DNA of 64,000 bases, from assembly GCA_035438745.1 (NCBI GenBank), contig DAORIX010000001.1:3075-67074 (forward strand), read 5' to 3'. Every line of letters starts with the position of its first letter. Positions within the stretch are counted from its first letter, which is position 1. Source of the stretch: Minisyncoccota bacterium (GTDB taxonomy: Bacteria; Patescibacteriota; Minisyncoccia; Phycocordibacterales; UBA6065). The position numbers and the translations under genes were made by a program. This document shows positions 5,819 to 63,993 of the stretch, piece after piece. The notes below the pieces were generated by a model, which did not search any database, was not told where the DNA came from, and saw only the letters and a program-made list of their open reading frames with translations.

Positions 5819-5823
5819 AAGTA

Positions 5824-6178: not shown

Positions 6179-6250
6179 GTGCCCCTGCCAAGAATTGAAC
6201 TTGGATCAGCTCGTTAGGAGTGAGCTATTCTATCCGTTGAACTACAGGGG
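6179..6250 (-). tRNA. tRNA-Arg (CCT)
   Basis: Minus-strand GCCCCTGTAGTTCAACGGATAGAATAGCTCACTCCTAACGAGCTGATCCAAGTTCAATTCTTGGCAGGGGCA; anticodon loop CTCCTAA with U33/A37; T-arm CCAAG-TTCAATT-CTTGG; one A:C mismatch in the anticodon stem. Confidence 0.8.
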
Positions 6251-6272
6251 CGATTTATTAAAACTACCACCT

Positions 6273-13107: not shown

Positions 13108-13228
13108 ACTTCTTGTATCTCTATAAATACTGCTAATAATGTCTCATTATTATAGATGACACGTGAGCATATAACAATGTGCACAAATACACAGAAAACA
13201 TCCACCCGTTAAGGTGGATGTTTTCATG

Positions 13229-32421: not shown

Positions 32422-32670
32422 ATGGTAGAAGAAATAAAACCCAACGCCGTCTATACGACAGAGGAAACAAGACAAGTCCTCCGTATTAGTGACAGCACCA
32501 TTAAGAGACTCCTCAAAAAAGGACTCCTGCGTGCAAACAAAGTTGGAGGACAATACAGAATCATGGGAAAAGAAATTTTACGAGTGGTCTCCCCTGATCT
32601 CGAGAAAGAAGCCGTAAAGTCATACCTCTCTCTCAAGAAAAAAGTAATAAAAAAAATAAACAAATGGTAA
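32422..32670 (+). CDS. excisionase/MerR-like helix-turn-helix DNA-binding protein (HTH_17-type)
   Basis: [38 protein letters not shown] matches the excisionase-family HTH. Stop overlaps the gmd start. An alternative start at 32398 lies inside the promoter spacer. Confidence 0.6.
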
Positions 32671-33761: not shown

Positions 33762-33762
33762 C

Positions 33763-34692
33763 ATGAATAAAAATTCAAAAATTTATATAGCCGGCCATTT
33801 AGGACTTGTAGGATCAGCTATTTTGAGAAAGCTCAATAAAGAAGGCTACACAAACCTCATTACAAAATCTCGTAAAGAGCTTGACCTTACTGATCAAAAA
33901 GCAGTGAAAGATTTTTTTGAAAAAACAAAGCCCGAATATGTATTTCTTGCCGCGGCAAAGGTGGGTGGAATTATGGCAAACAAAACCTACCCTGGAGAAT
34001 TTATTTCCGAAAATCTCGACATCCAAAATAATATAATAAAAAACTCCTACATCCACGGAGTAAAGAAACTGTTGTTTCTTGGAAGTTCGTGTATATACCC
34101 AAAACTAGCTACCCAGCCAATAAAGGAGGAGTATTTTATGACGGGTCCCCTTGAGCCAACAAATGAGGCGTATGCGATTGCAAAAATTGCAGGAATTTCA
34201 ATGTGCCAGTCATACCGAAAACAATATGGAGCTGATTTCATATCACTCATGCCGACAAATCTCTATGGACCGGGCGACAACTTCACGAACGAAAGAGGTC
34301 ATGTGATTCCGGCACTCATTAGAAAATTTCATGATGCAAAAGCCAAAAATCTTGACGAGATATCAGCATGGGGCACAGGATCAGCAAAACGAGAATTTTT
34401 ACACTCGGATGATTTAGCTGATGCGTGTGTGTTCCTCATGAAGAATTACTCCTCGGGAGATATTATAAACGTTGGTACAGGCGAAGACGTCACTATCAAA
34501 GAACTCACCGAAAAAATTAGCAAGATCGTTGGCTTTAAAGGAAAAATTGTCTGGGACACCACAAAACCAGACGGTGCTCCCCGAAGACTACTTGATGTAG
34601 AAAAACTTCACACCCTAGGTTGGAAACACCACATAGAACTCGAAAAAGGTCTTGAAGAAACCTATGAGTGGTTCAAAAAAAATGTCATCTAA
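33763..34692 (+). CDS. fcl: GDP-L-fucose synthase family (GDP-4-keto-6-deoxy-D-mannose 3,5-epimerase/4-reductase; Fcl/WcaG, or a ColC-type paralog)
   Basis: [19 protein letters not shown] Rossmann start, [18 protein letters not shown] blocks; start at MNKNSK (33763) abuts the gmd stop. Confidence 0.8.
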
Positions 34693-34696
34693 AAAA

Positions 34697-35911
34697 ATGA
34701 AAAAAGGTAAAAAAAATACAGCAGTACCCTACAAAGTACCCCTCATGAAAAATGCTTTTATTGAGGAAAAGAGCGTCAGGGCAAAACTCTCACAATTTGT
34801 TCTCACTGCCCCACGCCTCAGTATGGATTTACAATGCGCTCAGTTTGAAAAAACGTTCGCGAAAAAACAGGGTCGAAAATACGCGATTTTATTCAACAGC
34901 GGAGGAAGCGCAAACCTCGCAATGATACAAGCGCTCAAAAACTTAGGCGCACTCAAGGACAATGACAAAGTAGGCTTCTCTGCTGTTACCTGGTCAACAA
35001 ATGTTATGCCCATCCTACAAATGGGACTTGGTGCCGTTCCTATCGACTGTGACCCCACCACACTCAACTCAATGAGCCATTGTGCCTTACCCCGACTTGA
35101 ACAAGAAAAGTGTAAAGCCTTTTTTATAACCAACGTACTAGGTTTTTCTGGTGATCTCGATGTAATCGAAAAAGAATGTGCAAAAAAAGGAATTATAGTA
35201 CTCGAGGACAACTGTGAATCACTTGGCACCGTGCTCCATACAGGAAAGACGGGTAATTTTAGTCTTGCATCAAGTTTTTCTTTTTTTGTTGCCCACCATA
35301 TGTCAACAATTGAAGGAGGCATGGTGTGTACAGACGATCACGATTTTGCAGAAATGCTCAAAATAGTTCGAGCTAATGGTTGGGATAGAAATCTCCACCC
35401 AAAGAGACAAAAACACTGGCGCAAGAAACATGAAGTAGAATCTTCTTTTCACGCAAAATACACTTTTTATGACCTCGGCTTTAACTTACGTCCTACTGAA
35501 ATAACTGGTTTTATTGGACTCAATCAACTTCCCCACCTCGATAAAACTATCAAAATTCGTGAAAAGAATTTCAAAAAAATATACGCACAAATATTAAAAA
35601 ATGATGATTTTCTAAAAATCTCACACGATCACCTCAAAACCATTTCTGCTTTTGCAATACCTTTCATATGTAAAACACCGGAGCTCAGAAAAAAATATAT
35701 CAAAATATTCAACGATGCAGGAGTTGAGATTAGACCAATGATTGCTGGAAATATGCAAAAGCAACCATTCTCGAAAAAATACACGTCAAAAACATTTGAT
35801 CTTCCTGGTGCTGATGTATTGCACGACAATGCTTTTTATTGTGGAAATTGTCCCGACTACACGCCTGCGGAGATAGAAATCATTTTAAATTGTATAATAA
35901 AAGGAAAATAA
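34697..35911 (+). CDS. DegT/DnrJ/EryC1-family PLP enzyme with His replacing the Schiff-base Lys: ColD/E1-like sugar 3-dehydratase candidate
   Basis: Fold-type I aminotransferase blocks (FEKTFA..KYAILFNSGGSANL, GDLD..IVLEDNCESLG). Where the family has SFxxxK....GEGG the sequence reads SFFVAHHMSTIEGG. Confidence 0.6.
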   Translation: MKKGKKNTAVPYKVPLMKNAFIEEKSVRAKLSQFVLTAPRLSMDLQCAQFEKTFAKKQGRKYAILFNSGGSANLAMIQALKNLGALKDNDKVGFSAVTWSTNVMPILQMGLGAVPIDCDPTTLNSMSHCALPRLEQEKCKAFFITNVLGFSGDLDVIEKECAKKGIIVLEDNCESLGTVLHTGKTGNFSLASSFSFFVAHHMSTIEGGMVCTDDHDFAEMLKIVRANGWDRNLHPKRQKHWRKKHEVESSFHAKYTFYDLGFNLRPTEITGFIGLNQLPHLDKTIKIREKNFKKIYAQILKNDDFLKISHDHLKTISAFAIPFICKTPELRKKYIKIFNDAGVEIRPMIAGNMQKQPFSKKYTSKTFDLPGADVLHDNAFYCGNCPDYTPAEIEIILNCIIKGK

Positions 35912-38668: not shown

Positions 38669-39538
38669 ATGGCCAAAGTTTTTATCGGTATGCCTGTATA
38701 TAATGGTGAGCACTTCCTAAAAGAAGCCCTCGACTCTCTGTGTTCGCAGACATATTCTAATTGGAATATGCATATCTCTGATGATGGTTCCACCGACTCT
38801 ACCGAAGCGATTTGTCGCCTCTATGTAGAAAAAGACAAACGTATAACCTACTACCGCCAGCCAAAAAATATCGGTATGTTTGAGAATTTTAAATACACCC
38901 TAGAGAAATCAAACTCGGAATATTTTATGTGGGCAGCCCAAGATGATCTCTGGGAAAAAACATTTCTTGAAACATGCGTCTCGATTCTCGACAATGATAC
39001 TCGCGTTGGACTTGCCGGAACCACAATCGCTGAAATAGACTCTTATGGAAGAACCGCTCGTGAACTACTCTCACTGGAAAAACTTTCTGGTAAACCAAGT
39101 GTAAAAACAATTACCCACTACGTTCTCGAACCAGAAATACTTGGAAGGTGTAACATTATGTATGGCCTCTGGAGAACCGCCGCCATAAAAGAAACATGGA
39201 AAGCGTATCCCCAACGATCTGTCTGGGGACAGGACTACATGTTTGTACTGGCAGGTATTTCGCGTTTTGGCGTAAAGATTGATAACAAGACACTATTCAA
39301 AAAAAGACTTGGTGGATACTCGAGTCCCGATGCGACAAAAAATGACGCGCCCGGAGAGACACAAAAACGTACCATTACCAACCCCAAAGACTATATTTTC
39401 CCCCTTGGAAGGTTTAATGTTTACTTTAAGGGCCACATGGAAGCGTTACGAGGTACGCCCTATCAACCTCTCGCTGCAGTACTCTTATTAGCAAGGCTCC
39501 CTCGGGCATTATGGAATCATTTTAAACAAACACCATGA
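38669..39538 (+). CDS. family 2 glycosyltransferase
   Basis: IGMPVYNGEHFLKEALDSLCSQTY..ISDDGSTD GT-A N-terminus and DxD region. Confidence 0.8.
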   Translation: MAKVFIGMPVYNGEHFLKEALDSLCSQTYSNWNMHISDDGSTDSTEAICRLYVEKDKRITYYRQPKNIGMFENFKYTLEKSNSEYFMWAAQDDLWEKTFLETCVSILDNDTRVGLAGTTIAEIDSYGRTARELLSLEKLSGKPSVKTITHYVLEPEILGRCNIMYGLWRTAAIKETWKAYPQRSVWGQDYMFVLAGISRFGVKIDNKTLFKKRLGGYSSPDATKNDAPGETQKRTITNPKDYIFPLGRFNVYFKGHMEALRGTPYQPLAAVLLLARLPRALWNHFKQTP

Positions 39539-40419
39539 TCATCGTAAAACTTTCAGGCGGTTTAGGAAATCAACTCTTTCAATATGCCTTCGCACGTGCT
39601 GTATCAAAAAAACTCAATACAGATTTTAAGCTTGATGCGACACCTTTTGAGACGTACTACAAACTCCACAAATATGCACTCAATCACTTTAATCTTACTG
39701 AAAAATTAGCGAAAAGAAGCGATATGTTTGGTTTTGTTTGGATACGAGAACGTCACAAATTTTTTGACACTTTTTATAGATACCTCCGACTCAAAAGCAA
39801 ACTTATGCCTTTTTACTATCCTGAGCAACGATTTGATTTTGATCCCAATGTGTTTAAAAAAGACAACATGTACTTTGACGGCTTTTGGCAAACAGAAAAA
39901 TATTTCAAAAATATCGAGAACGAACTCAAAGAAGAAATGACTCTCAAAAAGCCACTTTCTCCGTATAGTCAGTCTGTACTCGATCAAATACAAAAAACCA
40001 ATGCTGTTTGCCTCCACATACGACGTGGCGACTATGTCACCAATGCAAGCACGAACGCAGTTCACGGTACCTGTTCACTTGAATACTACGAACGCGCCAT
40101 CAAATACATATCCGAGAAAGTAGACTCTCCTCATTTTTTTATATTCTCAGATGATTATCCTTGGGCGGTAGAGAATTTTAAAAATCGACCCTACCCTGTT
40201 ACGTGTATTTCAAATGGTGCTGACAAAAACTACGAAGACCTGACTTTAATGTCTCACTGTAAACACTTCATCATCGCCAATTCAAGCTTTAGTTGGTGGG
40301 GTGCATGGCTTTCAAGAAACACAGACAAAATTGTAATTGGTCCAAAAGAGTGGTTTAAAAGCAAAAAAACAACGGTCAGCACTGATGACGTGATTCCTTC
40401 CTCGTGGATAAAAATGTAA
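39535..40419 (+). CDS. GT11 alpha-1,2-fucosyltransferase family protein
   Basis: GT11 motif I GGLGNQLFQYAFARA and motif II HIRRGDY, plus the C-terminal NSSFSWWGAWL block. Confidence 0.8.
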   Translation: MIIVKLSGGLGNQLFQYAFARAVSKKLNTDFKLDATPFETYYKLHKYALNHFNLTEKLAKRSDMFGFVWIRERHKFFDTFYRYLRLKSKLMPFYYPEQRFDFDPNVFKKDNMYFDGFWQTEKYFKNIENELKEEMTLKKPLSPYSQSVLDQIQKTNAVCLHIRRGDYVTNASTNAVHGTCSLEYYERAIKYISEKVDSPHFFIFSDDYPWAVENFKNRPYPVTCISNGADKNYEDLTLMSHCKHFIIANSSFSWWGAWLSRNTDKIVIGPKEWFKSKKTTVSTDDVIPSSWIKM

Positions 40420-46242: not shown

Positions 46243-47007
46243 ATGAAACAGAAACTTAAAACAATTCCCCTCTTGAAATATCTTGTGGTTGTCGCAAGGG
46301 TTTTCATAATTAAACCTAATTTTCTAAAACGAACATATGCACTTGCTGTATTTCTCAGTGATTACAGAAAGTACAAAAAACTTGAAAAAAATAATACGTA
46401 CCTCTTACAAACAACAGACCTTTTTCCCCGAATATACGACAAGACGGCGAACACTGATGTAGATCCTGTGTACTACCTCCAAGGATGTTGGTGTGCAAAG
46501 AAAATATTTGAAAACAAGCCCACTCGGCACTACGATATAGCCTCTCAAGCTCTTATGGTGGGTATTATCTCTCAATACGTACCAACAACAATGATTGATA
46601 TACGCCCTCTCTCAGTAACCCTACCTGAGCTCTCATTTATAAAGGGAGACATAACACATCTCCCTTTTAAGGACGGAGAAATATCGTCTGTCTCATCGAT
46701 ATGCGTTATTGAACACATAGGACTTGGACGCTATGGTGACCCTCTTGATCAGTTTGGTACCGAAAAAGCGGCACATGAACTTACTCGGATTTTAGCTAAA
46801 AACGGAAACCTCTATATTTCTGTACCCGTAGATAGTATTAATAAAACATACTTCAATGCACACCGGGCATTCACCAGAGAGTATGTGCTTTCCTTGTTTA
46901 AAAACCTACATCTCAAGGAAGAAAAGTACATCTATGGAAAAGAAATACATACATCGTATGATCCACGCAAAGGGTTCGGAACAGGCCTCTATCACTTCAG
47001 CAAATAA
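46243..47007 (+). CDS. class I SAM-dependent methyltransferase (DUF268-like)
   Basis: DIRPL..GDITHLPFKDGEISSVSSICVIEHIGLGRYGDP..NGNLYISVPV block; start at MKQKLK avoids overlap with the upstream GT2. Confidence 0.6.
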   Translation: MKQKLKTIPLLKYLVVVARVFIIKPNFLKRTYALAVFLSDYRKYKKLEKNNTYLLQTTDLFPRIYDKTANTDVDPVYYLQGCWCAKKIFENKPTRHYDIASQALMVGIISQYVPTTMIDIRPLSVTLPELSFIKGDITHLPFKDGEISSVSSICVIEHIGLGRYGDPLDQFGTEKAAHELTRILAKNGNLYISVPVDSINKTYFNAHRAFTREYVLSLFKNLHLKEEKYIYGKEIHTSYDPRKGFGTGLYHFSK

Positions 47008-47011
47008 TCAC

Positions 47012-47932
47012 ATGAAAAAAGTCATCATACTTAAAAACGGAGGTGGTGAACTTGCAAATCAATTATGGAACTACATAAGCATCTATGCGTATGGCATCGA
47101 AAAAAATAGATCCATAAAAAATCCTTCTTTTTTTGAATACCACTCGTATTTCAACTTCATAAAAGACGAGAGTGTTCTGACAAAATTCTTTTCTTTTTGG
47201 TTCAAAAATTTCTCAGGAAGACGCAGCAGCTTTCGTAGCCAACTATGGCGAAAGGTATATATTCTCTACGTATACACGCTGACTTTGTTCAACAAAAAAA
47301 ACACCATTTCTTCTGAAAACACAAAAGGAGAAAAAGTATACCTCTCGCCAACACAGGAATCTGTACCCGATGAAAACATCCAGACGCTCTACTTTACGGG
47401 GTGGCTCTTTAGAAACCCGCTCGGATTAGAAAAACATAGACAAAATATTGTGAAGGCATTTGCACCGGAAGAATCTATCACAAAAAAAGTAACTTCGATT
47501 ATACGCGACATAGACAATCGCTATGGAACAATAATCGGTGTACATATCCGCCAAGCAGATTACGCGTTCTTTAAAGATGGCAAATACTTACTGACCCAAG
47601 AAAGGGTACGAAAAGTTATTGACGAATATTGTGTGGCAAAAAATATACAAGTAGACAAAACCCTTTTTCTTATTACATCAGATGGACCCGTGCAAGAAAA
47701 TATATTTAAAGGACTCAACATTCATATCTCCAAAGAAAAAGCAGTGATTGATCTTTTCCTTCTCTCAAGTTGTGATGAAATTCTAGGTTCAGATTCGAGT
47801 TTTGGCGCCTTTGCCTCATGGTACGGCAACATACCCCACATCATCATGACAAAAGAAAACATGGACTGGGAATACTACAAAGACAAAACTACCTTCTTCC
47901 AAAATAAATACTCGACACTCGCCCATTACTAA
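47012..47932 (+). CDS. second GT11-like (alpha-1,2-fucosyltransferase family) glycosyltransferase, divergent
   Basis: Motif I variant KNGGGELANQLWNY and motif II variant HIRQADY with C-terminal SDSSFGAFASWYG. Start at 47012; the upstream 156 nt of the ORF-track call overlaps the MT gene. Confidence 0.6.
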   Translation: MKKVIILKNGGGELANQLWNYISIYAYGIEKNRSIKNPSFFEYHSYFNFIKDESVLTKFFSFWFKNFSGRRSSFRSQLWRKVYILYVYTLTLFNKKNTISSENTKGEKVYLSPTQESVPDENIQTLYFTGWLFRNPLGLEKHRQNIVKAFAPEESITKKVTSIIRDIDNRYGTIIGVHIRQADYAFFKDGKYLLTQERVRKVIDEYCVAKNIQVDKTLFLITSDGPVQENIFKGLNIHISKEKAVIDLFLLSSCDEILGSDSSFGAFASWYGNIPHIIMTKENMDWEYYKDKTTFFQNKYSTLAHY

Positions 47933-47934: not shown

Positions 47935-48070
47935 ACACACACATAGGCATTTTTAGGGCTTTTTGAAGCAAAAGGTAGAATCCCTGTGCAGCGGAGTAAC
48001 AAAAGCCCCCTAAAGGGCCATTATAAGCCTCAGAAGAGCCGTGGAAAGAGCCTAGGGGATTTACACCGAT
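47935..48070 (+). other. 136-nt structured intergenic segment between convergent genes (candidate 3'UTR element or small RNA)
   Basis: Imperfect long-range pairing tagggctttt / aaaagcccccta enclosing about 40 nt, several GC-rich local stems, followed immediately by a strong terminator. Confidence 0.2.
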
Positions 48071-48104
48071 AAAAACACCCGTACATACGGGTGTTTTTAT
48101 TTTA
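48071..48104. terminator. bidirectional rho-independent terminator between the plus-strand glycan operon and the convergent GME gene
   Basis: aaaaacacccgta-cata-cgggtgttttt with T-run on both strands. Confidence 0.6.
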
Positions 48105-49121
48105 CTTACGAGATTTTTTCTTTTTCAAAACCTTTTTTGTTTTTTGTGGTTTTGATTTTTTCTGCTTTTGTACCTGCTCATTAATCCATTCATATGTTTT
48201 TGCCATCCCCTCTTTAAGAGGCCGACTTGGAGCCCAGTTCAACTTTTCTTTGATAAGTCGATTGTCAGAGTTACGTCCACGCACTCCGAGTGGACCAGGC
48301 ACATGATTGAGGCGAACTTTTTTTCCAGCAATAGAACTTACCATATGAACGAGATCGTTTATCGATATCATTTCATCTGAGCCAATATTTACCGGACCTG
48401 TAAAATCAGATCTCATGAGGCGCTCAACACCCTCGAGACATTCATCGATATAGAGAAAAGATCGAGTTTGTTCTCCATCACCCCACACTTCAACAACACC
48501 CCCATCTTTTGCCTCAGCAACCTTGCGACATGTCGCAGCAGGTGCTTTTTCCTTTCCACCATTCCATGTGCCCTCTGGACCAAAAACATTATGAAAACGT
48601 GCAATACGCACATTCATACAATGATTTCGAGCATATGCCATAAAAAGTCTTTCGCTAAATATTTTTTCCCAACCATATTCACTATCAGGAGCTGCGGGAT
48701 AAGCCGACTCTTCACTACAATCTGGATTGTTAGGATCAACCTGATTACGCTCAGGATAAATACACGCGGATGAGGAGTAAAAAAGAGTGCCCACACCAAC
48801 CTTTCGTGCTTGTTCAGCAATATTAAGGTTGATTGTCGCCGAATTGTGCATAATATCGGCATCGTGATTTCCTGTAAAAATATAACCCGCTCCTCCCATA
48901 TCTGCCGCAAGCTGATACACACGATCGAAAGAACGATTGAGAACCTTTGCGCACACTTTAACATCTCTCAAATCACCTACGACAAATTCATTGGCCTTTG
49001 AAACACCGTACTCGGGTTTTTTTAGATCAACACCACGCACCCAATATCCATCTTTTCTGAGTTTGGTCACAAGATGATTTCCAATAAATCCACCGGCGCC
49101 ACACACAAGAGCTCTTTTCAT
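48102..49121 (-). CDS. GDP-mannose 3,5-epimerase (GME) homolog with Lys-rich C-terminal tail
   Basis: Extended SDR matching the GME pattern: GAGGFIGNHL, LAADMGGAGYI, SSSACIYPE, GPEGTWNGGKEKAPAA, WGDGEQTRSF..IDEC, PVNIGSDEM, PGPLGVRGRNSDNRLIKEKL. The last 22 aa are QKQKKSKPQKTKKVLKKKKSRK. Confidence 0.75.
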   Translation of the reverse strand: MKRALVCGAGGFIGNHLVTKLRKDGYWVRGVDLKKPEYGVSKANEFVVGDLRDVKVCAKVLNRSFDRVYQLAADMGGAGYIFTGNHDADIMHNSATINLNIAEQARKVGVGTLFYSSSACIYPERNQVDPNNPDCSEESAYPAAPDSEYGWEKIFSERLFMAYARNHCMNVRIARFHNVFGPEGTWNGGKEKAPAATCRKVAEAKDGGVVEVWGDGEQTRSFLYIDECLEGVERLMRSDFTGPVNIGSDEMISINDLVHMVSSIAGKKVRLNHVPGPLGVRGRNSDNRLIKEKLNWAPSRPLKEGMAKTYEWINEQVQKQKKSKPQKTKKVLKKKKSRK

Positions 49122-49207
49122 GTGATTTAACAGTTTAACTGAATATATAACCTAAATAATGGAAAAATTATAGTCTTTTTAGCCTCAAAAGACAATGATA
49201 GACAGTT

Positions 49208-50764
49208 TTATTTCTTCCTCCCCACAATATACAAATGGGTCGCCACAGCGTCTGAACCAGGTATATACATAAAGAGGTAATCGAGATATTTGAGAGGACC
49301 CAAAACCAACATAAAAACATGAGCAAGAAATGGAGCAATTTTTCGTGAACCAAAAGAAAAAATAACACCCAGCCAGTATGCCAGAAACATGAGGAGTGTT
49401 GACCACGGACCTGAACGAACTCCCGCCTCTACAATTTCAAGATCAGAAAACATATGTTTGAGTCCTGAAATAGTCCATCTATTAAAATCGTCAGGTGATG
49501 CATGGTACGGATGCATAAAAGGAGCACTCACATACACATAACCACCCGGCTTCACAATTCTCACCATCTCCCGAGCAACAAGGTGTGCATCAGGCACATG
49601 TTCGAACAAAGACTCAGACACTGCAGCGTCTACTGAATTATCCTTAAAAGGCAACCGTGTCGCATCAGATACAATATCGACTTCGGGGAAAGGAAAAATA
49701 TCGACGTTTATAAATTCATCCCCCAGTCGTTCTGGTCCGGAACCCACATCTACAACTGTTGCACCCCGTGGAACCTTTTTGAGAATTATACGTGGGCCGT
49801 TCACCAACATGAGTACCGGACAAAAAACATGCCAAATAGAATAGTAAATCTTTGGAAACTGTTTCAAAAAAGACTTCAGCCAATTAACTCCAGACTCATG
49901 CTGATCGCTATTGCGCTCATACACCACTCTTTCAATCAAAATAGGGCGACGCGAATCATCAATAATAAAAGTCTCATGAAGAGAACACGCGAGTCCATTA
50001 TCGCTCACCTTAAAGTCCCCCTTACAAAAAGGACAACAGACAAGATGAAGGTGATTGTCTACCTCGCGAGCACGAGGTTTTTTCAAATTAAGAAGCCTAT
50101 CTGCGATAAGTAATTGTATCGCCTTGAAACCATCTCTATAGCGAATCTTTTTACCCTCTTTTGCGTCCCGCGGTGTGTGCGAAATAGGAACCTCTACAAT
50201 ACTGTGCCCCTCGCGCAACAATGCTGCTGTAAAAAGTAATTCGGACTCAAATTGACCAGGGATAAATAGTTTTTTTGAAGACTGAGGAAAAAGCTTATAG
50301 CATGTCCATACGTCAGTCAGGCGTGCTCCGTATAAAAAGTTAATGAGTTGCGTTATGAACCAGACACCCAGACGCTGAGCATAAAAACCTTTTCTCTTTT
50401 CGTGATGTAAATTGCGTGAACCGTATACAACCTGAGATCCCGTACTTAGAGCCTCGACAAAAAGAGGAATTTCCTTGGGATGATACTCCAGGTCAGCGTC
50501 CTGAATTAAAATATAATCACCCGTTGCTTCCTCGAGGCCTCGAGTCACCGCTGTGCCCTTGCCACCATTTTTCTCTTGATGGATTGTAATAATACGAGAA
50601 GCGTACTTCTTCAGTATGTCTTTGGTTCCGTCTGTAGAAGCATCATCGACAACAATAACCTCTTTTGACCATCCAGGAATGGAGACGGCAAAAACACGAG
50701 AAAGAAGTTCTTCTATTGTTTTTTCTTCATTAAAACACGGTATAACTATTGAAATCTTTTTCAT
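49208..50764 (-). CDS. fusion protein: DPM1/GtrB-like GT2 (polyprenyl-phosphate sugar synthase-like) + Cys4 zinc ribbon + class I SAM methyltransferase
   Basis: N-terminal ISIVIPCFNEE..VVDDASTDGT..IQDADLEYHP (DPM1-like), middle CCPFCKG...C, C-terminal VVDVGSGPERL..VDAAVSESLFEHV..VKPGGYVYVS (Methyltransf_11). Confidence 0.75.
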   Translation of the reverse strand: MKKISIVIPCFNEEKTIEELLSRVFAVSIPGWSKEVIVVDDASTDGTKDILKKYASRIITIHQEKNGGKGTAVTRGLEEATGDYILIQDADLEYHPKEIPLFVEALSTGSQVVYGSRNLHHEKRKGFYAQRLGVWFITQLINFLYGARLTDVWTCYKLFPQSSKKLFIPGQFESELLFTAALLREGHSIVEVPISHTPRDAKEGKKIRYRDGFKAIQLLIADRLLNLKKPRAREVDNHLHLVCCPFCKGDFKVSDNGLACSLHETFIIDDSRRPILIERVVYERNSDQHESGVNWLKSFLKQFPKIYYSIWHVFCPVLMLVNGPRIILKKVPRGATVVDVGSGPERLGDEFINVDIFPFPEVDIVSDATRLPFKDNSVDAAVSESLFEHVPDAHLVAREMVRIVKPGGYVYVSAPFMHPYHASPDDFNRWTISGLKHMFSDLEIVEAGVRSGPWSTLLMFLAYWLGVIFSFGSRKIAPFLAHVFMLVLGPLKYLDYLFMYIPGSDAVATHLYIVGRKK

Positions 50765-50771
50765 AGAAACT

Positions 50772-51590
50772 CTAGTGATAAAAAGGTGTGGTTTGAGAAA
50801 TATAATCAATCTGAAGACCCCTCTTAACCGCTACGAAATTTGTAAGAGTAAAGCGCTCTTGATCGGGGAAATACTCGACCCTCTCAAGAGAACGGGATTT
50901 CAAACGATACATATCGTACCCATACTGCTCAAAAAATCTCAAGAAGTCACGTAGAAAAAATCGAGACTCCAAAGTTGCCCCAGAAAATTCATACTGTACC
51001 ATGTCGACCATACCTTGTTTGAACATATTTTCTGCGCCTTTCAAAACAAAAAACTCATAACCCTCAACATCCACCTTCAAGAAATCTACATGGCGAATGT
51101 TGTGATCCTTTACATACTCATCGAGAGTAGTCACCTGAACCATAAGTGCTTTTTCTTTTTTATCTTGTTCGTGAATATCAAACAAAGAATTAAAAACCGT
51201 CTTTGAATGACGAAATAGTTGCATCTGGGTCTTTTTCTCACCCACTGCACAATTATTTAAAATGGCTCTTTTTTTAAAGTCCTTCGTATTCGTTTGTAAT
51301 TGATCAAACGCTCTCACGTCTGGTTCAAAAGCATGAACAACCACATCAGGATTGCTCGAGAGAATTTTTCTAGAGTAATCCCCTATATTCGCACCGACAT
51401 CAAAAACCACCTTTAGTTTTCCCTGTAATTTCTCGAGAAGCCAGTATTCACCGTTTGTCTCGCGGTCAAAAGCATTATCCCCATAACAAAAATCAATGTA
51501 TTTACTACAAAACAAAAAAAGCAGTCGAGAGTATCGTGGGTTATTGCGATTAATAAAAATCTTTACGAGGTTTTTTTTAAAAAAATTCAT
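50772..51590 (-). CDS. FkbM-family methyltransferase
   Basis: VFDVGANIGDYS SAM-binding block and FkbM-domain layout. Confidence 0.7.
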   Translation of the reverse strand: MNFFKKNLVKIFINRNNPRYSRLLFLFCSKYIDFCYGDNAFDRETNGEYWLLEKLQGKLKVVFDVGANIGDYSRKILSSNPDVVVHAFEPDVRAFDQLQTNTKDFKKRAILNNCAVGEKKTQMQLFRHSKTVFNSLFDIHEQDKKEKALMVQVTTLDEYVKDHNIRHVDFLKVDVEGYEFFVLKGAENMFKQGMVDMVQYEFSGATLESRFFLRDFLRFFEQYGYDMYRLKSRSLERVEYFPDQERFTLTNFVAVKRGLQIDYISQTTPFYH

Positions 51591-52966
51591 ATAAGTTTTT
51601 GTGGTTTTTGCAGTTTGAGTAGTATAGTACGAAATACTGAAATCAGTCCATAAAGAGCAAAACTTCCAATAAACACCTCCACAGGAACTCTAAACCGAGC
51701 GTTTACTCCAAAACCGTTGATGGCAGTAGTCACAGCAAAATACAAAACCATACAAAGCGCAGTGATGACATACGGTCTTACTTCTTCTTTCCTTAACAAA
51801 AGCCATGCGCCAACACAAAAGAATAGAGCACACACATACCAAAACAATCTCATGAGAATAATAAAGAAAGCGGGGCCGTATACATAATGAGAAATGGCAG
51901 AAAAAAGCTCACCGGGATGCGCAAGAAGAGTAATGACCGGCTTTGCCACCACATTCTCTAAACGAATATCCATATTGCCCAAGATCGTAAGAACCCCATC
52001 ATGTGTAAAAAAGGTAACGAGTGTAATGAGGGCCGATTGTATCAAAGCACTCTTGTGTTCGCGTATGATTTCAAAGGCCTTATCTGTGTACTCTTGAGCG
52101 TTCTCTAATGTAATCGTGTTCGGATCAAAACCATCTTTATACACGAAAGAATTCAGCTCCGTAGCAAAATCTGTGTTGTTATCAATAGCGAGCAGTGTGG
52201 GCACAATATATACATACGCATTGAAAGCAGGTTGCGCACTCATGCCCCACACGCCAAATTCCTGCTTATTACGATACAGCCATGGCATAACAACGAGCGA
52301 GGCAAAAAGTGCAAACAACAAAACATGAAGACAAACTATTTTTGATAGCCTTTTTCGTTCAATAAACAAAAGCCCTAGTGGAACGAGAAAGATAAAGTAC
52401 TGAACCGTAGGTTTAATTAAAATCGAAAGTCCCAAAAAAACAGAAGCCCAAATAATGGCACGAAGTGTTTTGTGCCGTATATAACGGAAGAGAAACAAAA
52501 CAAAACAAAGAAAGAAAAAAGTAAAAGATGTTTCCGTATAAAGTAAAAAAGAGAGCAAAATAGTATAAGGGCTCATGGCCATGAAATAGCCCACGTAACG
52601 CGAAATTTTCTCTGTTACGAAATAACGCGAAATGAGTACGCCTAGTATCGGTATACTACTCGCCATAAGCAATTCACATACAAAAACCAACGGGTATCCG
52701 CCAACTGAGGCAAGCCCTGCAATAATGTAAGGCCACAGAGGAGGCCTCAAGGGATTTGGTCTAAAAGGAGGTTCTGCATCAAAACTGAAGCCGTTACCTA
52801 AAAGAATATTTTGGCTCAGCTCATAGTACCCATCGTCGCCTTTAATAGTAGGTATAAGTTGGTGGTCATTTACAGTAAAATTTACAGAAAAAAGCACCAC
52901 CCTAAGCAGTAAGGCAAAAAGAAAAAGAATGATAAAAAAACGGTATTTTTGAAAAAAATTTTTCAT
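51587..52966 (-). CDS. GT-C fold membrane glycosyltransferase (ArnT/PMT, GT39/GT83-like; polyprenyl-phosphate-sugar dependent)
   Basis: 459 aa, about 11 TM, N-terminal DDGYY-type loop (IKGDDGYYELSQNILLGNGF) characteristic of the PMT/ArnT family first extracytoplasmic loop. Confidence 0.65.
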   Translation of the reverse strand: MKNFFQKYRFFIILFLFALLLRVVLFSVNFTVNDHQLIPTIKGDDGYYELSQNILLGNGFSFDAEPPFRPNPLRPPLWPYIIAGLASVGGYPLVFVCELLMASSIPILGVLISRYFVTEKISRYVGYFMAMSPYTILLSFLLYTETSFTFFFLCFVLFLFRYIRHKTLRAIIWASVFLGLSILIKPTVQYFIFLVPLGLLFIERKRLSKIVCLHVLLFALFASLVVMPWLYRNKQEFGVWGMSAQPAFNAYVYIVPTLLAIDNNTDFATELNSFVYKDGFDPNTITLENAQEYTDKAFEIIREHKSALIQSALITLVTFFTHDGVLTILGNMDIRLENVVAKPVITLLAHPGELFSAISHYVYGPAFFIILMRLFWYVCALFFCVGAWLLLRKEEVRPYVITALCMVLYFAVTTAINGFGVNARFRVPVEVFIGSFALYGLISVFRTILLKLQKPQKLI

Positions 52967-54106
52967 TTATTTTAATTGCATAAAACGAACAATTCTTTCA
53001 GCGCGATTATCCCATGTGTGTTTTTGTGCCACTAGAAAAGCTTTTTCTACCAAGCGCGACCTATCTCCGTCTACACAAGACTTAATTGCACCCGCAAGTG
53101 AAACCGCGTTATCTGGCTCAAAAAACACAGCACTGTCCTCGCCAACAATCTCTCTAATTGAGGGTATGTCAGAGGCAACAATAGGCTTCTTTGATGCCAT
53201 GTACTCAAACAGCTTCATCGGCGATGTGTAGTATAGTGATATTTTTTCTTTCCCAGTATTAGGCAAAACGAGAACATCTGCAGCTTTTTGCCATAGAGGT
53301 ATCTGTGCATGAGGCTTGTGTCCCACAACCTGTATATTCTTCACATCTCCATACTTCTTTAAAAAAGAATTGACATCATGAAGTGTTCCTCCAACAAAAA
53401 TGACCTCACAGTTATCAGGTAACAATCGAGCCGCCTCCGCGAGAGTATCGACACCTTTCCATCCATACAGATGACCAGTGTAGACAATTATTTTTTTGTC
53501 CAGAGACAAACCAAGATCTTTTCGGGCTTGAGCGGTAGAAATAGATACGTCGAAATCTCTAACATCTACAGCGTTTGGTTCATACAGAAATAAATCTTTC
53601 CTCAAACGAGGAAAAAGCTCATGCACGCGCTTGAGTTTCCACTTATTATGAACAAGTACCCATCTCATCAAACCGAGGGCGTGACCGAAAAAGAAAAGCT
53701 TACTCTCGGGAAAATCATGCATTTCATAAAAACAATTGGGTATTATTTTTGAAACAAAAAAAAGAGGAACAATTTCGTTGGAATAAACGATATCTCCTTC
53801 CGTATAATTTTTCTTTAAAAAATAAAAAACACCCCATGAAAAAGAAAACATGCTCACCACAAAAGCTGCGTACTTGAAAAGAAACGTGTCGAAAATGTCT
53901 ATCACGGGGACATAAACGATTTTGAAAGATTGAGATATTCCATAAAACGTAAAAGCGTCTTCCGTGGGGATGTTTTTTCTTTTTGGAACCAAAACGGTTA
54001 CTTCAAAACCCTGTCTTGAAAAAGCCTCAGCGTTTTTTGCTGTAAACAGAGAAGCTGCTTTTTCACTAGGAAATCGGCCGTGGAATATAAGGAATAGCTT
54101 CTTCAT
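52967..54106 (-). CDS. GT4 glycosyltransferase
   Basis: Glycos_transf_1 C-terminal domain (SPMKLFEYMASKKPIVASDIPSIREIV). Confidence 0.75.
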   Translation of the reverse strand: MKKLFLIFHGRFPSEKAASLFTAKNAEAFSRQGFEVTVLVPKRKNIPTEDAFTFYGISQSFKIVYVPVIDIFDTFLFKYAAFVVSMFSFSWGVFYFLKKNYTEGDIVYSNEIVPLFFVSKIIPNCFYEMHDFPESKLFFFGHALGLMRWVLVHNKWKLKRVHELFPRLRKDLFLYEPNAVDVRDFDVSISTAQARKDLGLSLDKKIIVYTGHLYGWKGVDTLAEAARLLPDNCEVIFVGGTLHDVNSFLKKYGDVKNIQVVGHKPHAQIPLWQKAADVLVLPNTGKEKISLYYTSPMKLFEYMASKKPIVASDIPSIREIVGEDSAVFFEPDNAVSLAGAIKSCVDGDRSRLVEKAFLVAQKHTWDNRAERIVRFMQLK

Positions 54107-57009: not shown

Positions 57010-58041
57010 TTAATGAATGACCTGCACAAGTCTATCTCTAAGCTTGTCCAAACTATGCTGCTTGAGCACAACATTTCGCAAAATCGCTCCTTGAGCAACC
57101 CGAGAAGGTTTGTCCATGAGGATAATCCTCTCAAGTTTAGAAGCGAGCTCAGCAACATCACCTTCGGTGAAAATAAAACCATCGTCAATGAGTCCGCGTA
57201 AATTTTCATTAGAAGCAAGAACAAGACTCTCACACGCCATGGCTTCAAAAATAGTCTTATCGTACATCCCCGATGAAGATAAGTTTACGAACACCTCATG
57301 AGCGTTGTACACCCCGGGAGTTTGATCGTTTGGGATGCCGGGCAAAAAAGTGACCTTATCGGAAACACCCTCCTTGTGCGCCATGTATCTCAAGGAATCT
57401 GCATACTCTCGATCTTTTGGTAGAGGATCTCCAATAATAGTCGCATAAAAAGGCACTTTTTTTGTAGCAAGGATACCGAGCGCTCGTATTAAAACATCAG
57501 GTTTCTTAACCGGAGCAATACGAGCTAGAAATAAAATCGAGTGAGGTTTTCTGTCTTTTCTATACGGCGCAAAAATAGATGTATCTACACCAACAGGCAT
57601 AAGTATGGTTTTTTTAAATTTTGCCGTATATGAGTATTTTGATGTACAAAAAATATTCTTACAGAAAAGCGAAACAATATTAGTAAACTCACTACCAGAG
57701 TGATGATTTCTCCACATGTATATTGGCTTCCGTAAGAGTTTCCACAAAAAACCACCCAGAAGGACATACTCCTCGTTCATGTGAACAAATACAGCGTCAT
57801 ACTCTTTTCTTTTTGAAAAAATATACGTATAGAAATTTTTTAAATACTTCCACTTTGACTGTCCTCCTTCTTTACCCAAAGAAAGTACAGAAACATTGTG
57901 CGGTAAATCATACTCTCCTTTTTCGAGACATATAACCGTAATCGCTTTATACACTGAAGCAAAATCAAAAATCCAACGGTGAAAAAAACCCAGCACAGGA
58001 TCATTTTTATTAACCTTTTGAGTTATGATGAGTAATTTCAT
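57010..58041 (-). CDS. GT4 glycosyltransferase
   Basis: Glycos_transf_1 domain (SGMYDKTIFEAMACESLVLASN). Confidence 0.75.
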   Translation of the reverse strand: MKLLIITQKVNKNDPVLGFFHRWIFDFASVYKAITVICLEKGEYDLPHNVSVLSLGKEGGQSKWKYLKNFYTYIFSKRKEYDAVFVHMNEEYVLLGGFLWKLLRKPIYMWRNHHSGSEFTNIVSLFCKNIFCTSKYSYTAKFKKTILMPVGVDTSIFAPYRKDRKPHSILFLARIAPVKKPDVLIRALGILATKKVPFYATIIGDPLPKDREYADSLRYMAHKEGVSDKVTFLPGIPNDQTPGVYNAHEVFVNLSSSGMYDKTIFEAMACESLVLASNENLRGLIDDGFIFTEGDVAELASKLERIILMDKPSRVAQGAILRNVVLKQHSLDKLRDRLVQVIH

Positions 58042-58475
58042 ATCGGTTTTCTAGTGGAAACATTTTCTGGAAATATAATATAGCGATAAGCAAAAAAACT
58101 TACCCCCGCCATGATTCCGATAGTAAGCACTTGTGCAAAAACATACCACACGTGAAGTATCTCCACGAAAAAATACAAAAACCCCGTAGTAGCAACCATA
58201 CTCACAGCGTACAACACGCTATAGAAAAAAAGTTGTTTATGCACCGTTGCTGTATTTGTATCACGAAAAGTAAATTTTTTCTGAAGCAAAAAACGCACAA
58301 TAAATGATGTTGTGAGCGCAATGACTGCTGATGCTAGATAATAAACATGAAAATATTCTGTGAGCACAAAAAGCAAACCAATATCAAGAAACGATGAAAA
58401 ACCTCCCGAAAAAATATAACGAACAACAAGAGTGTCCGTAGCTAGAGCGATTATGTTTTTAAAAAAAGAAATCAT
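58038..58475 (-). CDS. GtrA-family small membrane protein (polysaccharide synthesis/flippase-associated)
   Basis: 145 aa, 4 TM, N-terminal RYIFSGGFSSFLDIGLLFVLTE block typical of GtrA. Confidence 0.7.
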   Translation of the reverse strand: MISFFKNIIALATDTLVVRYIFSGGFSSFLDIGLLFVLTEYFHVYYLASAVIALTTSFIVRFLLQKKFTFRDTNTATVHKQLFFYSVLYAVSMVATTGFLYFFVEILHVWYVFAQVLTIGIMAGVSFFAYRYIIFPENVSTRKPI

Positions 58476-62154: not shown

Positions 62155-63993
62155 TTATTGATTCATATCGAGAATCTTTTTCAAAACATCCTCCGGTACT
62201 TCTTGTTTTGATGATGGTGGAGGGGTAGGTATTTGCTCCTTTGGTTGTGGTTTCGGAATATTTTTTTCACTCGTTGCTGAAATAGCAGAAGTATCAGTTT
62301 TTTCTACCTTAGGAACAACAGAAGCGAGAGCCTGCCGTAAATCGTTAACATTTTTTTGGCTAGGAACTTTTTTTGTATTGTGCTCCAAACCAGAAGTAAT
62401 TGGGGGTTTTGGTTTTAATTCCGTGAGGGAAACAGTCTTTGTAAGGGGAACAAAATCATCGTTATCCTGTGTCTGTAAAACAGGCTTATCGAAAGCTGGA
62501 GGAGCGGTCCTCGGTTCTGTTCTTTTTTGAGCAAAATCAGCAGGAGGGTTGTGAGGATTTCGTTGTGGCTGAGTATCGAGAGGACGAGATGGACGAGTAT
62601 CACGATTAAAAGAGCCTCCGTCCTGTCTACGCGTATCCCTCTGTGGTTCTGAGCCATGTTCTCTACGAGGAAAGGCCTCCTGTCGTTTCTCTACTCTTTG
62701 CTGAGGTGGGTGGCTTTCTTTGTCTACTCCGGCTTGCTTGCGAACTTCCTCTTCAACTCCCGCCCGCTTTGAGGCGTAGGTAAGTCGTGACTGTTCAATT
62801 ATTTTTTCATACTGGGAGACGCTCGGTAATTGGATAGGAGGTAACGTGGTTGCAGAAAAAGGCTGTGAAGATACACCATCAATCATGAGCTTCAAATAAA
62901 TTTGATAGATGCCCAAATTCACAATATCCTCAGCGGTAAATGTTGGCGCAAATTCCTTTTCGAGTACCTCAGCATCAAAAGCTCCCACACGAAAAACGAT
63001 CATCGTTCCAACGTTTCCAAACACGGCAGCACGAACCTCATCTGACATTTGTTCAATATACTGATGAGCGATAGTAAGATTAAGTTTATACTTTCGAGCT
63101 TCAGACAAAATATCTGCAAAAGATTCATTAGCAAAAGACTGGAACTCATCCACATACAAATAAAAATTGGGTAACTTTTTAAGCGCTGCGTCTGAAGCAT
63201 CGGCTCGAGACATTGCGCCGAGATAGATTTTGGTGATAAGCATTGAACCGAGGAGGTTTGCATTCTGCTCTCCCACCCGACCCTTTGAAAGGTTGATAAT
63301 GAGAATCTTCTTCTCATCCATCATTTTTCTAATATCAAATGTTGATTTTGGCTGACCGATAATATTACGAACAAGAGGGTTTGAAATAAACTGACCAATC
63401 TTGTTTTGTATCGCAGCACCAGCCTCTTGCATATACCTCTCACCATATTTAGCAAACTCATCTACCCAAAAAGCCTTCACTGATGGATCAGTGATATTGT
63501 CCACAACTTTTTTACGATACTCCTTGTCGGCAAGCATTCTGTTTACGCCGATGAGTGTTGAGTCTGGATACTCAAGAAGCGCAAGAAGAATGTTGTTGAG
63601 AATATATTCCATACGCGCTGACCACGCATCTACCCATATTTTCTTGAACGCAGACATGAGACCAGAGACAACAAGGTGGCGTTTGTCAGCACCGACATCT
63701 TCCATCACATTAAATGAAATAGGGTGCTCAATATCAAAAGGAGCAAAATACAAAACATCTTTAATACGATGTTCCGGCACATACTGGAGGAGAAGGTCAG
63801 CAGTTTTGCCGTGAGGGTCAATAAAAGCGAGGCCGTTACCATTTTGAATATCCTGCACGGCCATATTTTCAAGAACAGTAGACTTACCCATACCCGTTTT
63901 ACCAATGATGTACGTGTGCCTACTCCTGTCTTTTGACTTAATACCAAAAGGTATTTTTTTATCTCGCGCATCAGTCTGCGCGAAGTATGTCAC
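62155..63993 (-). CDS. VirD4/TraD/TraG-like type IV secretion coupling-protein ATPase (FtsK/HerA superfamily) with disordered C-terminal tail
   Basis: Walker A IIGKTGMGKST, Walker B FYLYVDEFQSF, TIAHQY motif; about 170 aa P/Q/R/E-rich low-complexity C-terminus. Confidence 0.6.
   Translation of the reverse strand: MTYFAQTDARDKKIPFGIKSKDRSRHTYIIGKTGMGKSTVLENMAVQDIQNGNGLAFIDPHGKTADLLLQYVPEHRIKDVLYFAPFDIEHPISFNVMEDVGADKRHLVVSGLMSAFKKIWVDAWSARMEYILNNILLALLEYPDSTLIGVNRMLADKEYRKKVVDNITDPSVKAFWVDEFAKYGERYMQEAGAAIQNKIGQFISNPLVRNIIGQPKSTFDIRKMMDEKKILIINLSKGRVGEQNANLLGSMLITKIYLGAMSRADASDAALKKLPNFYLYVDEFQSFANESFADILSEARKYKLNLTIAHQYIEQMSDEVRAAVFGNVGTMIVFRVGAFDAEVLEKEFAPTFTAEDIVNLGIYQIYLKLMIDGVSSQPFSATTLPPIQLPSVSQYEKIIEQSRLTYASKRAGVEEEVRKQAGVDKESHPPQQRVEKRQEAFPRREHGSEPQRDTRRQDGGSFNRDTRPSRPLDTQPQRNPHNPPADFAQKRTEPRTAPPAFDKPVLQTQDNDDFVPLTKTVSLTELKPKPPITSGLEHNTKKVPSQKNVNDLRQALASVVPKVEKTDTSAISATSEKNIPKPQPKEQIPTPPPSSKQEVPEDVLKKILDMNQ

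Follow-up and report, generated by a model that had tools for sequence, protein, structure and literature searches.

[quoted passage not shown] It is a new member of this family and the tail is a minor lineage-specific embellishment. Taken as a whole, we consider it probable that the protein is a functional GME serving a glycan locus with a Wzm/Wzt transporter, that its product is drawn off by a transferase and that the tail is selected within a restricted clade, with a membrane tether being our guess for its role.

The frame runs from ATG to TAA exactly at the coordinates stated in the preliminary description and codes for 339 amino acids plus the stop. Directly past the stop codon there is an intrinsic-terminator-like hairpin (48069–48100, minus strand) with a 14-bp stem, a ΔG of −18.6 kcal/mol and a z of −4.5, which lies between an A-tract and a U-tract, and thus the end of the frame is the real end of the gene. 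This hairpin, revealed by direct RNA folding and not listed by a consensus terminator scan, might act for both of the genes that converge here, and the loci L001 and L081 also have a hairpin in this place. The 86-bp gap upstream of the GME gene contains a weak promoter-like TTGTCT-17-TATAAT (49167–49195, minus strand; 10/12 consensus), and the number of promoter-like sites in the region was not above the shuffled expectation in a consensus scan. A plus-strand ORF at 48091–48306 is merely the poly-Phe mirror of the poly-Lys codons of the tail.

Using phmmer against the PDB, the best match was the plant enzyme AtGME (2c59) with E = 2.8e-101 and 52% identity over 313 residues. UDP-xylose synthase (UXS) followed as the next enzyme class at 4.5e-30, 70 orders of magnitude weaker, and dTDP-glucose dehydratases (RmlB-type) reached 1e-15 or worse, so that the homology to GME proposed earlier was confirmed. 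Pfam (PF01370, 2.6e-39) and NCBIfam models gave family-level SDR matches only and no NCBIfam model scored at its cutoff (TIGR01181: 72.5 bits, cutoff 365), leaving the family membership to the PDB comparison and the residue mapping. With the AF2 model (pLDDT 85) as query, Foldseek ranks 1–14 in the PDB are all GMEs (TM 0.84). Furthermore, all six motif blocks that had been cited for the protein are present verbatim, namely LAADMGGAGYI, SSACIYPE, GPEGTWNGGKEKAPAATCRK, WGDGEQTRSFLYIDEC, PVNIGSDEM and PGPLGVRGRNSDNRLIKEKL, and each of them aligns to the matching block of AtGME. The dN/dS of about 0.01–0.04 against the loci L001 and L081 indicates strong purifying selection on the gene.

In the alignment to AtGME all six GME-defining residues are found in the window protein. 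The NAD+-binding glycine motif GAGGFIG (residues 8–14; 49080–49100, minus strand, like all codons given here) has G8, G11 and G14 aligned with GxxGxxA of AtGME, and the three are invariant across 63 homologues. The same holds for S118 and C120 (codons of S118-A-C120 at 48762–48770), the triad Ser and the catalytic acid/base Cys, which correspond to S143 and C145 of AtGME and are invariant in alignment A1 of these 63 sequences, C120 being located inside SSACIYPE, as well as for Y149 and K153 in the YxxxK of the SDR triad (Y149-G-W-E-K153, 48663–48677; Y174 and K178 in AtGME). The catalytic base K192 (48546–48548, inside GGKEKAPAA) aligns with K217 and R283 (48273–48275, inside GVRGRNSDN), the Arg acidifying the catalytic Cys, with R306. 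Both the catalytic Cys and the catalytic Lys were therefore present when checked. In Fcl/GMER the base is His instead of Lys and the Cys-acidifying residue is Lys instead of Arg (PMC8787198); Lys192 and Arg283 together with a score of 103.9 bits against the NCBIfam Fcl model NF047922 (cutoff 500) led us to reject an identity as GDP-L-fucose synthase (GMER/Fcl).

The tail KKSKPQKTKKVLKKKKSRK (residues 321–339; 48105–48161, minus strand) contains 12 Lys/Arg and no Asp or Glu in 19 residues. With a K+R fraction of 0.125 over the 53 window proteins, the probability of finding at least 12 K/R in a 20-mer is 7e-7, and the density of the tail is thus above chance; such 20-mers are expected 0.013 times among all 19,013 20-mers of the window and 4e-5 times among the 53 C-termini. 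None of the remaining window proteins (53 surveyed) has more than 10 K/R per 20-mer, leaving GME with the only polybasic C-terminus (1/53). In the AF2 model the chain is coil from residue 324 onward and the pLDDT falls below 50 at residues 328–339, and the tail is predicted to be disordered. Apart from one Val, one Leu and one Pro it has no non-polar residues, and we found no Cys, Trp or Phe, no lipidation motif and no predicted helix beyond residue 323.

The tail had been described as not being part of known GMEs. This stands for the solved plant GMEs, for 79 of the 80 species genomes surveyed and for all 109 diverse representatives; there the polybasic tail is absent and no independent origin in a distant GME clade was found. 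It does not stand for the nearest metagenomic relatives, which bear similar Lys-rich tails. From the best 120 homologues, 10 have C-termini with a net charge of at least +6, seven of them among the 13 closest, and the Saccharibacteria GMEs in L005 and L027 are without the tail. We read the tail as a disordered outgrowth, restricted to one clade, of a C-terminus that tends to be mildly basic throughout the family, where 73% of the C-termini are net positive, and it would be kept by selection inside a shallow clade.

It is possible, even if we do not favour it, that the GME assignment is right and the tail has no specific function, being a low-complexity extension that is tolerated and that would have arisen through AT-rich mutational bias and slippage in AAA/AAG codon runs, at a C-terminus rich in Lys to begin with. 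Close relatives differ freely in the length (4–27 amino acids) and sequence of their tails, and the many net-positive C-termini turn the window tail into the extreme of a continuum; predicted disorder, a tail DNA made of A5–A6 runs and a glycan locus with lower GC (0.38–0.41) and very basic proteins (pI 8.5–9.7) all agree with such an origin. What speaks for selection instead is the divergence of the tail, which is identical in L001 and shows only one synonymous and three non-synonymous substitutions against L081. These are four differences in 66 nt where roughly 20–35 would be expected under neutrality at a core dS of about 0.9, and three non-synonymous changes per 54.5 sites at a core pS of 0.53. 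The 3' end of the GME gene shows low synonymous divergence as well, and the conservation could partly result from recombination or Lys codon bias rather than from selection on the protein. A functionless extension is further opposed by the specificity for GME, since in equally AT-rich related loci 4/6 GMEs and 0/48 other proteins have polybasic termini, by the Lys-rich composition, which is kept beyond about 80% core identity where the sequence is not, and by a similar Lys-rich extension in the ColD-like enzyme and its nearest relatives, there at the N-terminus. A genome-wide habit or by-product of AT bias was rejected for C-termini by such counts, with one case among the 53 proteins of the window and none among the 48 non-GME proteins of related loci. 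Neutral read-through after loss of a stop codon was rejected on the divergence counts and the terminator directly past the present stop, and ribosome sliding or phase variation was set aside as the runs comprise only 5–6 A.

The surroundings of the gene, on the chromosome of a bacterium resembling Candidatus Saccharibacteria (Patescibacteria), proved to be a glycan locus as had been claimed before. It is a surface-glycan locus with a size of about 30 kb, a Wzm/Wzt ABC transporter and many glycosyltransferases and methyltransferases. It includes the other enzymes for GDP-mannose-derived sugars (32664–35911, plus strand): a genuine Gmd (Pfam PF16363, 5.6e-155), a genuine Fcl (33706–34692; 2.7e-112 against PDB 1bsv) and a ColD-like dehydratase (8.7e-60 against PDB 2gms) that has kept the His-His motif. 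From the three L-sugars suggested previously, L-fucose and L-galactose/L-gulose are plausible, whereas colitose would need a ColC-type reductase and Gmd, Fcl and GME are the only SDRs found in the window. A gene for GDP-mannose pyrophosphorylase was not found in the window either. By homology, C4 of GDP-D-mannose would be oxidised by the bound NAD+ via the S118/Y149/K153 triad, C5 and C3 would then be epimerised by C120 and K192 with R283 tuning the Cys, and finally the 4-keto group would be re-reduced to give GDP-L-galactose and some GDP-L-gulose. As for any Patescibacteria GME, we infer both substrate and product ratio from homology. For the characterised bacterial enzyme MfGM35E an equilibrium of 80:15:5 (GDP-Man:GDP-L-Gal:GDP-L-Gul) favouring GDP-mannose has been reported, with GDP-L-gulose being a side product of GME (PMC6678494), and because of this equilibrium a transferase has to remove the product.

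The best candidate for using GDP-L-galactose is, judging by gene order and family, a divergent GT11 (fucosyltransferase-family) gene at 47012–47932 on the plus strand (PF01531, 29.4 bits, cutoff 23.9; likely start M53 of the ORF 46856–47932), as it is convergent on and syntenic with GME and as L-galactose is 6-hydroxy-L-fucose. Its orthologues directly follow GME in L001, L083 and L084 and are found near it in L003 and L005, and in L085 and L086 the GME gene has a GT11 or GT10 gene beside it. Altogether such GT11-like neighbours occur in eight loci, each of which is either labelled Patescibacteria or an unlabelled near relative; the other loci examined have none. The window also encodes a canonical GT11 (39535–40419). 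Moreover, a natural fusion of GME with a NodZ-like fucosyltransferase domain exists (P0121), and GDP-L-Gal is a known donor for fucosyltransferases (PMC8787198). A second candidate for the draw-off would be the GT2 domain of a GT2–methyltransferase fusion assigned by Pfam (49208–50809, minus strand) directly upstream of GME, acting together with a PMT_2-type GT-C membrane glycosyltransferase (51587–52966, minus strand; PF13231) in the same minus-strand gene run. The best PDB matches of the GT2 domain are 5mlz (2.9e-21) followed by ArnC and GtrB, pointing to a polyprenyl-phosphate glycosyltransferase of the DPM-synthase/ArnC/GtrB type. The fusion is found directly upstream of GME in L001, L081, L082, L083 and L084, and synteny of the GT-C gene with GME is kept in the first four of them.

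That this member of the GME family performs another reaction in the cell, for instance as a dedicated GDP-L-gulose-forming 5-epimerase or with GDP-mannuronate or GDP-heptose as substrate, appears improbable to us. Just one bacterial GME has been characterised (PMC6678494), GDP-L-gulose is made as a side product anyway, and some family members hint at substrate diversity by being fused to a UDP-Glc/GDP-Man dehydrogenase domain (P0125, P0167) or a cytidylyltransferase-like domain (P0018). Nevertheless, acid/base pair, Arg and triad are identical to those of AtGME, the identity to AtGME equals that of the proven bacterial enzyme, and the GT11, GT10 and NodZ-type neighbours and fusions fit an L-fucose-like donor, i.e. 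GDP-L-Gal.

Regarding the role of the tail, our best guess by analogy is that it would tether the soluble GME electrostatically to the anionic membrane face of the glycan assembly. From the features of membrane targeting it has the terminal disordered K/R cluster, and lipid anchor, hydrophobic or aromatic residues and amphipathic helix are missing; being almost without hydrophobic and aromatic residues and having no lipidation motif, it is weakened as a stand-alone membrane anchor. A tether to the adjacent membrane GT2–methyltransferase enzyme was rejected, as the tail-bearing GMEs in L085, L086 and L087 are without this neighbour, and a literature search on bacterial polybasic membrane tails gave nothing directly relevant. 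Going one step further, the disordered Lys-rich extensions of GME and the ColD-like enzyme might represent a lineage-specific recruiting device of a Saccharibacteria/Patescibacteria clade, forming a charge-driven metabolon that pulls the GME equilibrium toward L-galactosylation, which we regard as unlikely. If true, soluble GDP-sugar-modifying enzymes would be recruited to the anionic membrane or the glycan-assembly machinery, and the unfavourable equilibrium would be overcome with L-galactosylation by a divergent fucosyltransferase-family enzyme. The polybasic termini are of minor but testable interest for the question of how ultra-small cells might organise their soluble sugar-nucleotide enzymes.

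Binding of the tail to nucleic acid, an alternative raised in the preliminary description, or to polyphosphate, ribosomes or an acidic partner protein instead of the membrane seems highly improbable, although a Lys-dense, predicted disordered tail with no acidic and almost no hydrophobic residues would suit it. Lys-rich DNA-binding tails as in mycobacterial HupB and histone H1 resemble it more than amphipathic membrane-targeting helices do. Yet a nucleotide-sugar epimerase has no functional reason to bind nucleic acid, the neighbouring genes all concern membrane-associated glycan assembly, and a domain scan of the protein detected none for nucleic-acid binding. Finally, there is practically no chance that the protein is a UDP-glucuronate decarboxylase or dTDP-glucose dehydratase-type SDR, for which the generic family-level matches might be taken, as PDB scores and fold ranking put GMEs first among its homologues and as it has the Cys, Lys and Arg that are specific to GME.

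The statement in the preliminary description that GME is rare in bacteria must be corrected. Thousands of close homologues occur in many phyla and a bacterial GME was already characterised in 2019 (PMC6678494). At least 8000 scored candidates all showed E ≤ 1e-40, the best 120 of them being 69–99% identical to the window GME, and at least 150 clusters at 50% identity reached E ≤ 1e-71. Six exact peptide patterns alone match 230 stretches in species-representative genomes of many phyla. The family is thus common in bacteria, especially in Patescibacteria, Bacteroidota and Proteobacteria, and as its bacterial members are annotated merely as 'NAD-dependent epimerase/dehydratase', L-galactose and L-gulose on bacterial surfaces may be under-appreciated. 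Saccharibacteria live attached to host bacteria and their surface glycans likely matter for attachment and phage recognition; our literature searches on L-galactose and on surface glycans in Saccharibacteria found nothing directly relevant, and a locus that can provide L-fucose, L-galactose and perhaps a sugar of the colitose type gives a concrete starting point for their glycan chemistry. The recurrent pairing of GME with GT11, GT10 and NodZ-type transferases also points to natural L-galactosyltransferases, which have been named as a wanted biocatalyst in the GME literature (PMC8787198).

Among the closest known systems are the solved plant GMEs, AtGME (2c59, 2c54, 2c5a, 2c5e) and that of Myrciaria dubia (8sg0, 8skb). 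AtGME and the window GME share the fold, the S/Y/K triad, the Cys acid, the Lys base, the Arg and the six motif blocks. The plant enzymes differ in an N-terminal extension of about 27 residues and GxxGxxA, whereas the window GME starts at the Rossmann fold and has GxxGxxG, and in place of the polybasic tail their chains of 379 and 409 residues, which align only up to residues 347 and 377, continue into a C-terminal extension that is not basic; they serve ascorbate and cell-wall synthesis and not a bacterial glycan locus. For the tail itself, the K-Ras4B hypervariable region and the MARCKS effector domain offer a comparison (see also the review PMC10771482), as their basic clusters bind anionic phospholipids electrostatically. 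The GME tail likewise gathers about 12 Lys/Arg in a short disordered terminal stretch that has no acidic residue, but in K-Ras4B and MARCKS the basic cluster is accompanied by a lipid anchor or by aromatic residues, both lacking here. Fcl/GMER/WcaG are also extended SDRs with a catalytic Cys that perform GDP-sugar 3,5-epimerisation; their PDB match to the window GME is weak (about 1e-22), and GMER needs a pre-formed 4-keto substrate in addition to its different base and Cys-tuning residue. The only biochemically characterised bacterial GME, MfGM35E from Methylacidiphilum fumariolicum, is self-sufficient and about 50% identical to AtGME (PMC6678494). It belongs to another phylum, Verrucomicrobia, and is thermostable, and its likeness to the window GME follows from the published description: its gene adjoins glycosyltransferase and methyltransferase genes and a role in surface-glycan (LPS) synthesis has been proposed (PMC6678494).

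[quoted passage not shown] Its 5' gap of 86 bp contains a promoter-like site, and directly 3' of the stop codon lies a hairpin with a 14-bp stem (dG −18.6 kcal/mol, z −4.5), bordered by A- and U-tracts. Two related loci also have a hairpin at the equivalent position. Pfam assigned only the generic Epimerase family and an NCBIfam scan gave no model at cutoff. A search against all PDB sequences returned GME from Arabidopsis (AtGME, E=2.8e-101; 52% identity across 313 aligned residues) and Myrciaria dubia (6e-98) as best matches, with UDP-xylose synthase as the next class (4.5e-30) and dTDP-glucose dehydratases at 1e-15 or worse, so that neither of these families provides the closest relatives. 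The features that set GME apart from GalE and Fcl/GMER are an S/Y/K triad, Cys as the acid, Lys as the base (His in Fcl/GMER) and an Arg that tunes the Cys (Lys in Fcl/GMER) (PMC8787198). Alignment to AtGME identified all of these residues in our protein (S118, Y149, K153, C120, K192 and R283), and they are invariant across 63 homologues, including the catalytic C120 and K192. An AlphaFold model built on the alignment of these homologues (mean pLDDT 85) has only GMEs among its 14 best fold matches in the PDB (TM 0.84). The dN/dS of ~0.01–0.04 against the orthologues of two related loci, the near-twin L001 and L081, argues for a functional gene.

As proposed from the sequence, the gene lies within a glycan locus, which extends from about 29 to 62 kb and encodes Gmd, a true Fcl (matching E. 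coli Fcl at 2.7e-112), a ColD-like 3-dehydratase retaining the His-His motif (8.7e-60 to ColD), Wzm/Wzt, a canonical GT11, AsnB, GtrA, a PMT_2-type GT-C and numerous methyltransferases and glycosyltransferases of the GT2 and GT4 families. On the minus strand, GT4, GT-C, FkbM methyltransferase, GT2 plus methyltransferase (MT) and GME follow one another in a run that GME closes. The closest genome record carries the label of an uncultured Candidatus Saccharibacteria MAG. Over this locus it and the window are collinear, and its GME shows 99% protein identity with 69 nucleotide differences. The first 30 kb are of housekeeping character (TsaD, a class I aminoacyl-tRNA synthetase, LepA, MurJ, RNR, GatB, Obg, enolase, SecA and MurB), with a class A RNase P RNA (13228–13584, minus strand, 116 bits), tRNA-Phe(GAA) (5745–5818, minus) and tRNA-Arg(CCT) (6179–6251, minus). 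The glycan locus (32000–62000) has a GC content of 0.36–0.41, lower than the 0.40–0.45 of the first 32 kb, and nearly all of its proteins are strongly basic (pI 8.5–9.7), compared with pI 5–8 for most housekeeping proteins. The glycan locus also includes a large protein with a Wzy_C/O-antigen-ligase domain and C-terminal TPR repeats (29254–31455, minus), whose orthologues in L085 and L087 likewise adjoin such a locus; a second large protein with C-terminal TPR repeats adjoins MurJ (10741–13107, minus), and weak matches to TrwB_AAD_bind and T4SS-DNA_transf mark a VirD4/TraG-like type IV coupling protein at the edge of the glycan locus (62155–63993, minus).

Of the three L-sugars the locus had been thought to supply, two are plausible: L-fucose, through Gmd, Fcl and GT11, and L-galactose/L-gulose, through GME. 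Colitose requires a ColC-type reductase and no SDR other than Gmd, Fcl and GME was found in the window, so this branch is incomplete, unless the role of ColC is filled by Fcl or by a gene elsewhere.

Which enzyme might use the GME product is suggested by the neighbouring genes. A divergent GT11-family gene (47012–47932, plus strand; Pfam 29.4 bits vs cutoff 23.9) converges on GME. Such a gene follows GME directly in the same convergent arrangement in L001, L083 (8959–9879) and L084 (2094–3011), and lies near GME in L003 and L005. In L085, whose GME also bears a polybasic tail, a canonical GT11 lies immediately upstream of GME (5103–5918), and in L086, likewise tail-bearing, a GT11 and a GT10 fucosyltransferase-family gene lie by GME (1505–2359, 3143–4228); no Gmd or Fcl was seen in these two loci. 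Altogether a GT11-like neighbour was seen in eight Patescibacteria-type loci and in none from other phyla. L-Galactose is 6-hydroxy-L-fucose. GDP-L-Gal is accepted by fucosyltransferases (PMC8787198), and the GME equilibrium of 80:15:5 favours GDP-mannose (PMC6678494), so the enzyme must be coupled to a transferase that acts irreversibly. These fucosyltransferase-family neighbours are candidate natural L-galactosyltransferases, and homology and synteny suggest, as the most economical reading, that GME would pass GDP-L-Gal to one of them. A second possible consumer, proposed on the same grounds, is the GT2/GT-C route encoded at 49208–54106 (minus). The GT2-MT fusion lies directly upstream of GME in L001 and L081–L084, and the GT-C gene is syntenic in L001 and L081–L083. 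As its nearest relatives are dolichol-phosphate-mannose (DPM) synthase, ArnC and GtrB, the GT2 domain is of the polyprenyl-phosphate glycosyltransferase type; the fusion further comprises a putative Cys-rich zinc-ribbon, a SAM methyltransferase domain and, at the C-terminus, apparent hydrophobic (TM-like) segments. In combination with the PMT_2-type GT-C and the GtrA-family protein (58038–58475, minus) it resembles a route of extracytoplasmic glycosylation by way of polyprenyl-phosphate sugars.

The protein ends in a polybasic tail of 19 residues (321–339), KKSKPQKTKKVLKKKKSRK. The K+R fraction of the 53 proteins read from the window is 0.125, from which at least 12 K/R in a 20-mer have a chance of 7e-7 (4e-5 expected among 53 C-termini); other C-termini reach at most 7/20 and other 20-mers anywhere at most 10/20. 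With the exact reading frame and the hairpin at the stop, these statistics confirm that the tail reported in the preliminary description is genuine, that its position is right and that chance does not account for it. The antisense strand carries a Phe-rich 71-residue frame (48091–48306, plus), which we rejected as a gene as it merely mirrors AAA Lys codons as TTT. In the model the last helix (302–323) is followed by coil with pLDDT <50 for 328–339, predicting a short disordered embellishment. Past the conserved W-I, the C-terminal segments of 120 close homologues are nine residues long at the median, their median net charge is +1 and 73% are net positive, so the GME C-terminus is mildly basic in general. 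A charge of at least +6 was found in ten of them, seven being among the 13 closest, with varying lengths and sequences, e.g. NEQVKKSEKKVAPKTKSNKK and DTQVRDKAKKGKLMKVKIKGKAKEHN. The tail is identical in L001, the only one of 80 species-representative genomes to have it, and absent from all 109 diverse GME representatives; it is thus shared with the nearest relatives and restricted to this clade.

A locus-wide compositional effect was rejected, since in related loci at least eight K/R in the terminal 20-mer occur in 4/6 GMEs vs 0/48 other proteins. Neutral read-through was rejected as well: against L081 the tail shows one synonymous and three non-synonymous changes in 66 nt at a core pS of 0.53 (dS 0.92). 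The tail is apparently maintained. The last 130–200 nt of the core, too, show little synonymous divergence, and this 3' fall (48102–48300) may reflect a recombination tract or RNA-level constraint; tail conservation may derive partly from recombination or, as we suggest, Lys codon bias. Of the GME differences from L001, 66 fall within the first 819 nt, three within the following 132 and none within the final 66; just beyond the hairpin the window diverges again from the L001 and L081 sequences.

Our preferred guess for its role, held only tentatively, is an electrostatic tether to the membrane, at its anionic inner face. The tail would hold GME where glycosyltransferases and the ABC transporter reside and would help to draw off the minor product GDP-L-Gal. 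Against this, the tail has no hydrophobic or lipid anchor, its presence is uncorrelated with a membrane GT2-MT neighbour in L085–L087, and two other Saccharibacteria GMEs lack it. Chief among the rivals is a low-complexity expansion that is tolerated and serves no specific function. The tail might also bind nucleic acid or another polyanion, but the context lends this no support. The ColD-like enzyme (34652–35911, plus) parallels the GME tail with a Lys-rich N-terminal extension (34652–34745) ahead of the conserved VPLMKNAF, its start codon being ambiguous when compared with the NCBI call for an identical protein; two of the four GDP-sugar enzymes of the locus thus carry lineage-specific polybasic termini. 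Most of its nearest relatives (68–79% identical; 13 noted) have Lys-rich extensions of 11–30 residues, each different in sequence, whereas several equally close ones start directly at MKNA-type sequences, as most of the wider family do at MIPLMKNAF.

GME had been correctly identified but is not rare in bacteria. In a set of 5.8 billion proteins all 8000 scored candidates had E<=1e-40, the best 120 being 69–99% identical; six exact peptide patterns matched 230 stretches in species-representative genomes of Patescibacteria, Bacteroidota, Alpha- and Gammaproteobacteria, Acidobacteriota, Verrucomicrobiota and others, and a library clustered at 50% identity held at least 150 clusters with E<=1e-71. 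Such homologues are usually annotated merely as 'NAD-dependent epimerase/dehydratase'. Natural fusions join the GME domain to a NodZ-like fucosyltransferase domain (P0121), a UDP-Glc/GDP-Man dehydrogenase (P0125, P0167) or a cytidylyltransferase-like domain (P0018), and several further GME proteins of 550–770 residues have extra regions without Pfam match. Our protein is thus a typical bacterial GME-family member, with predicted activity, in a Patescibacteria surface-glycan locus, and its 52% identity to AtGME is at the same level as the 50.5% of Methylacidiphilum GME, the only characterised bacterial GME (PMC6678494).
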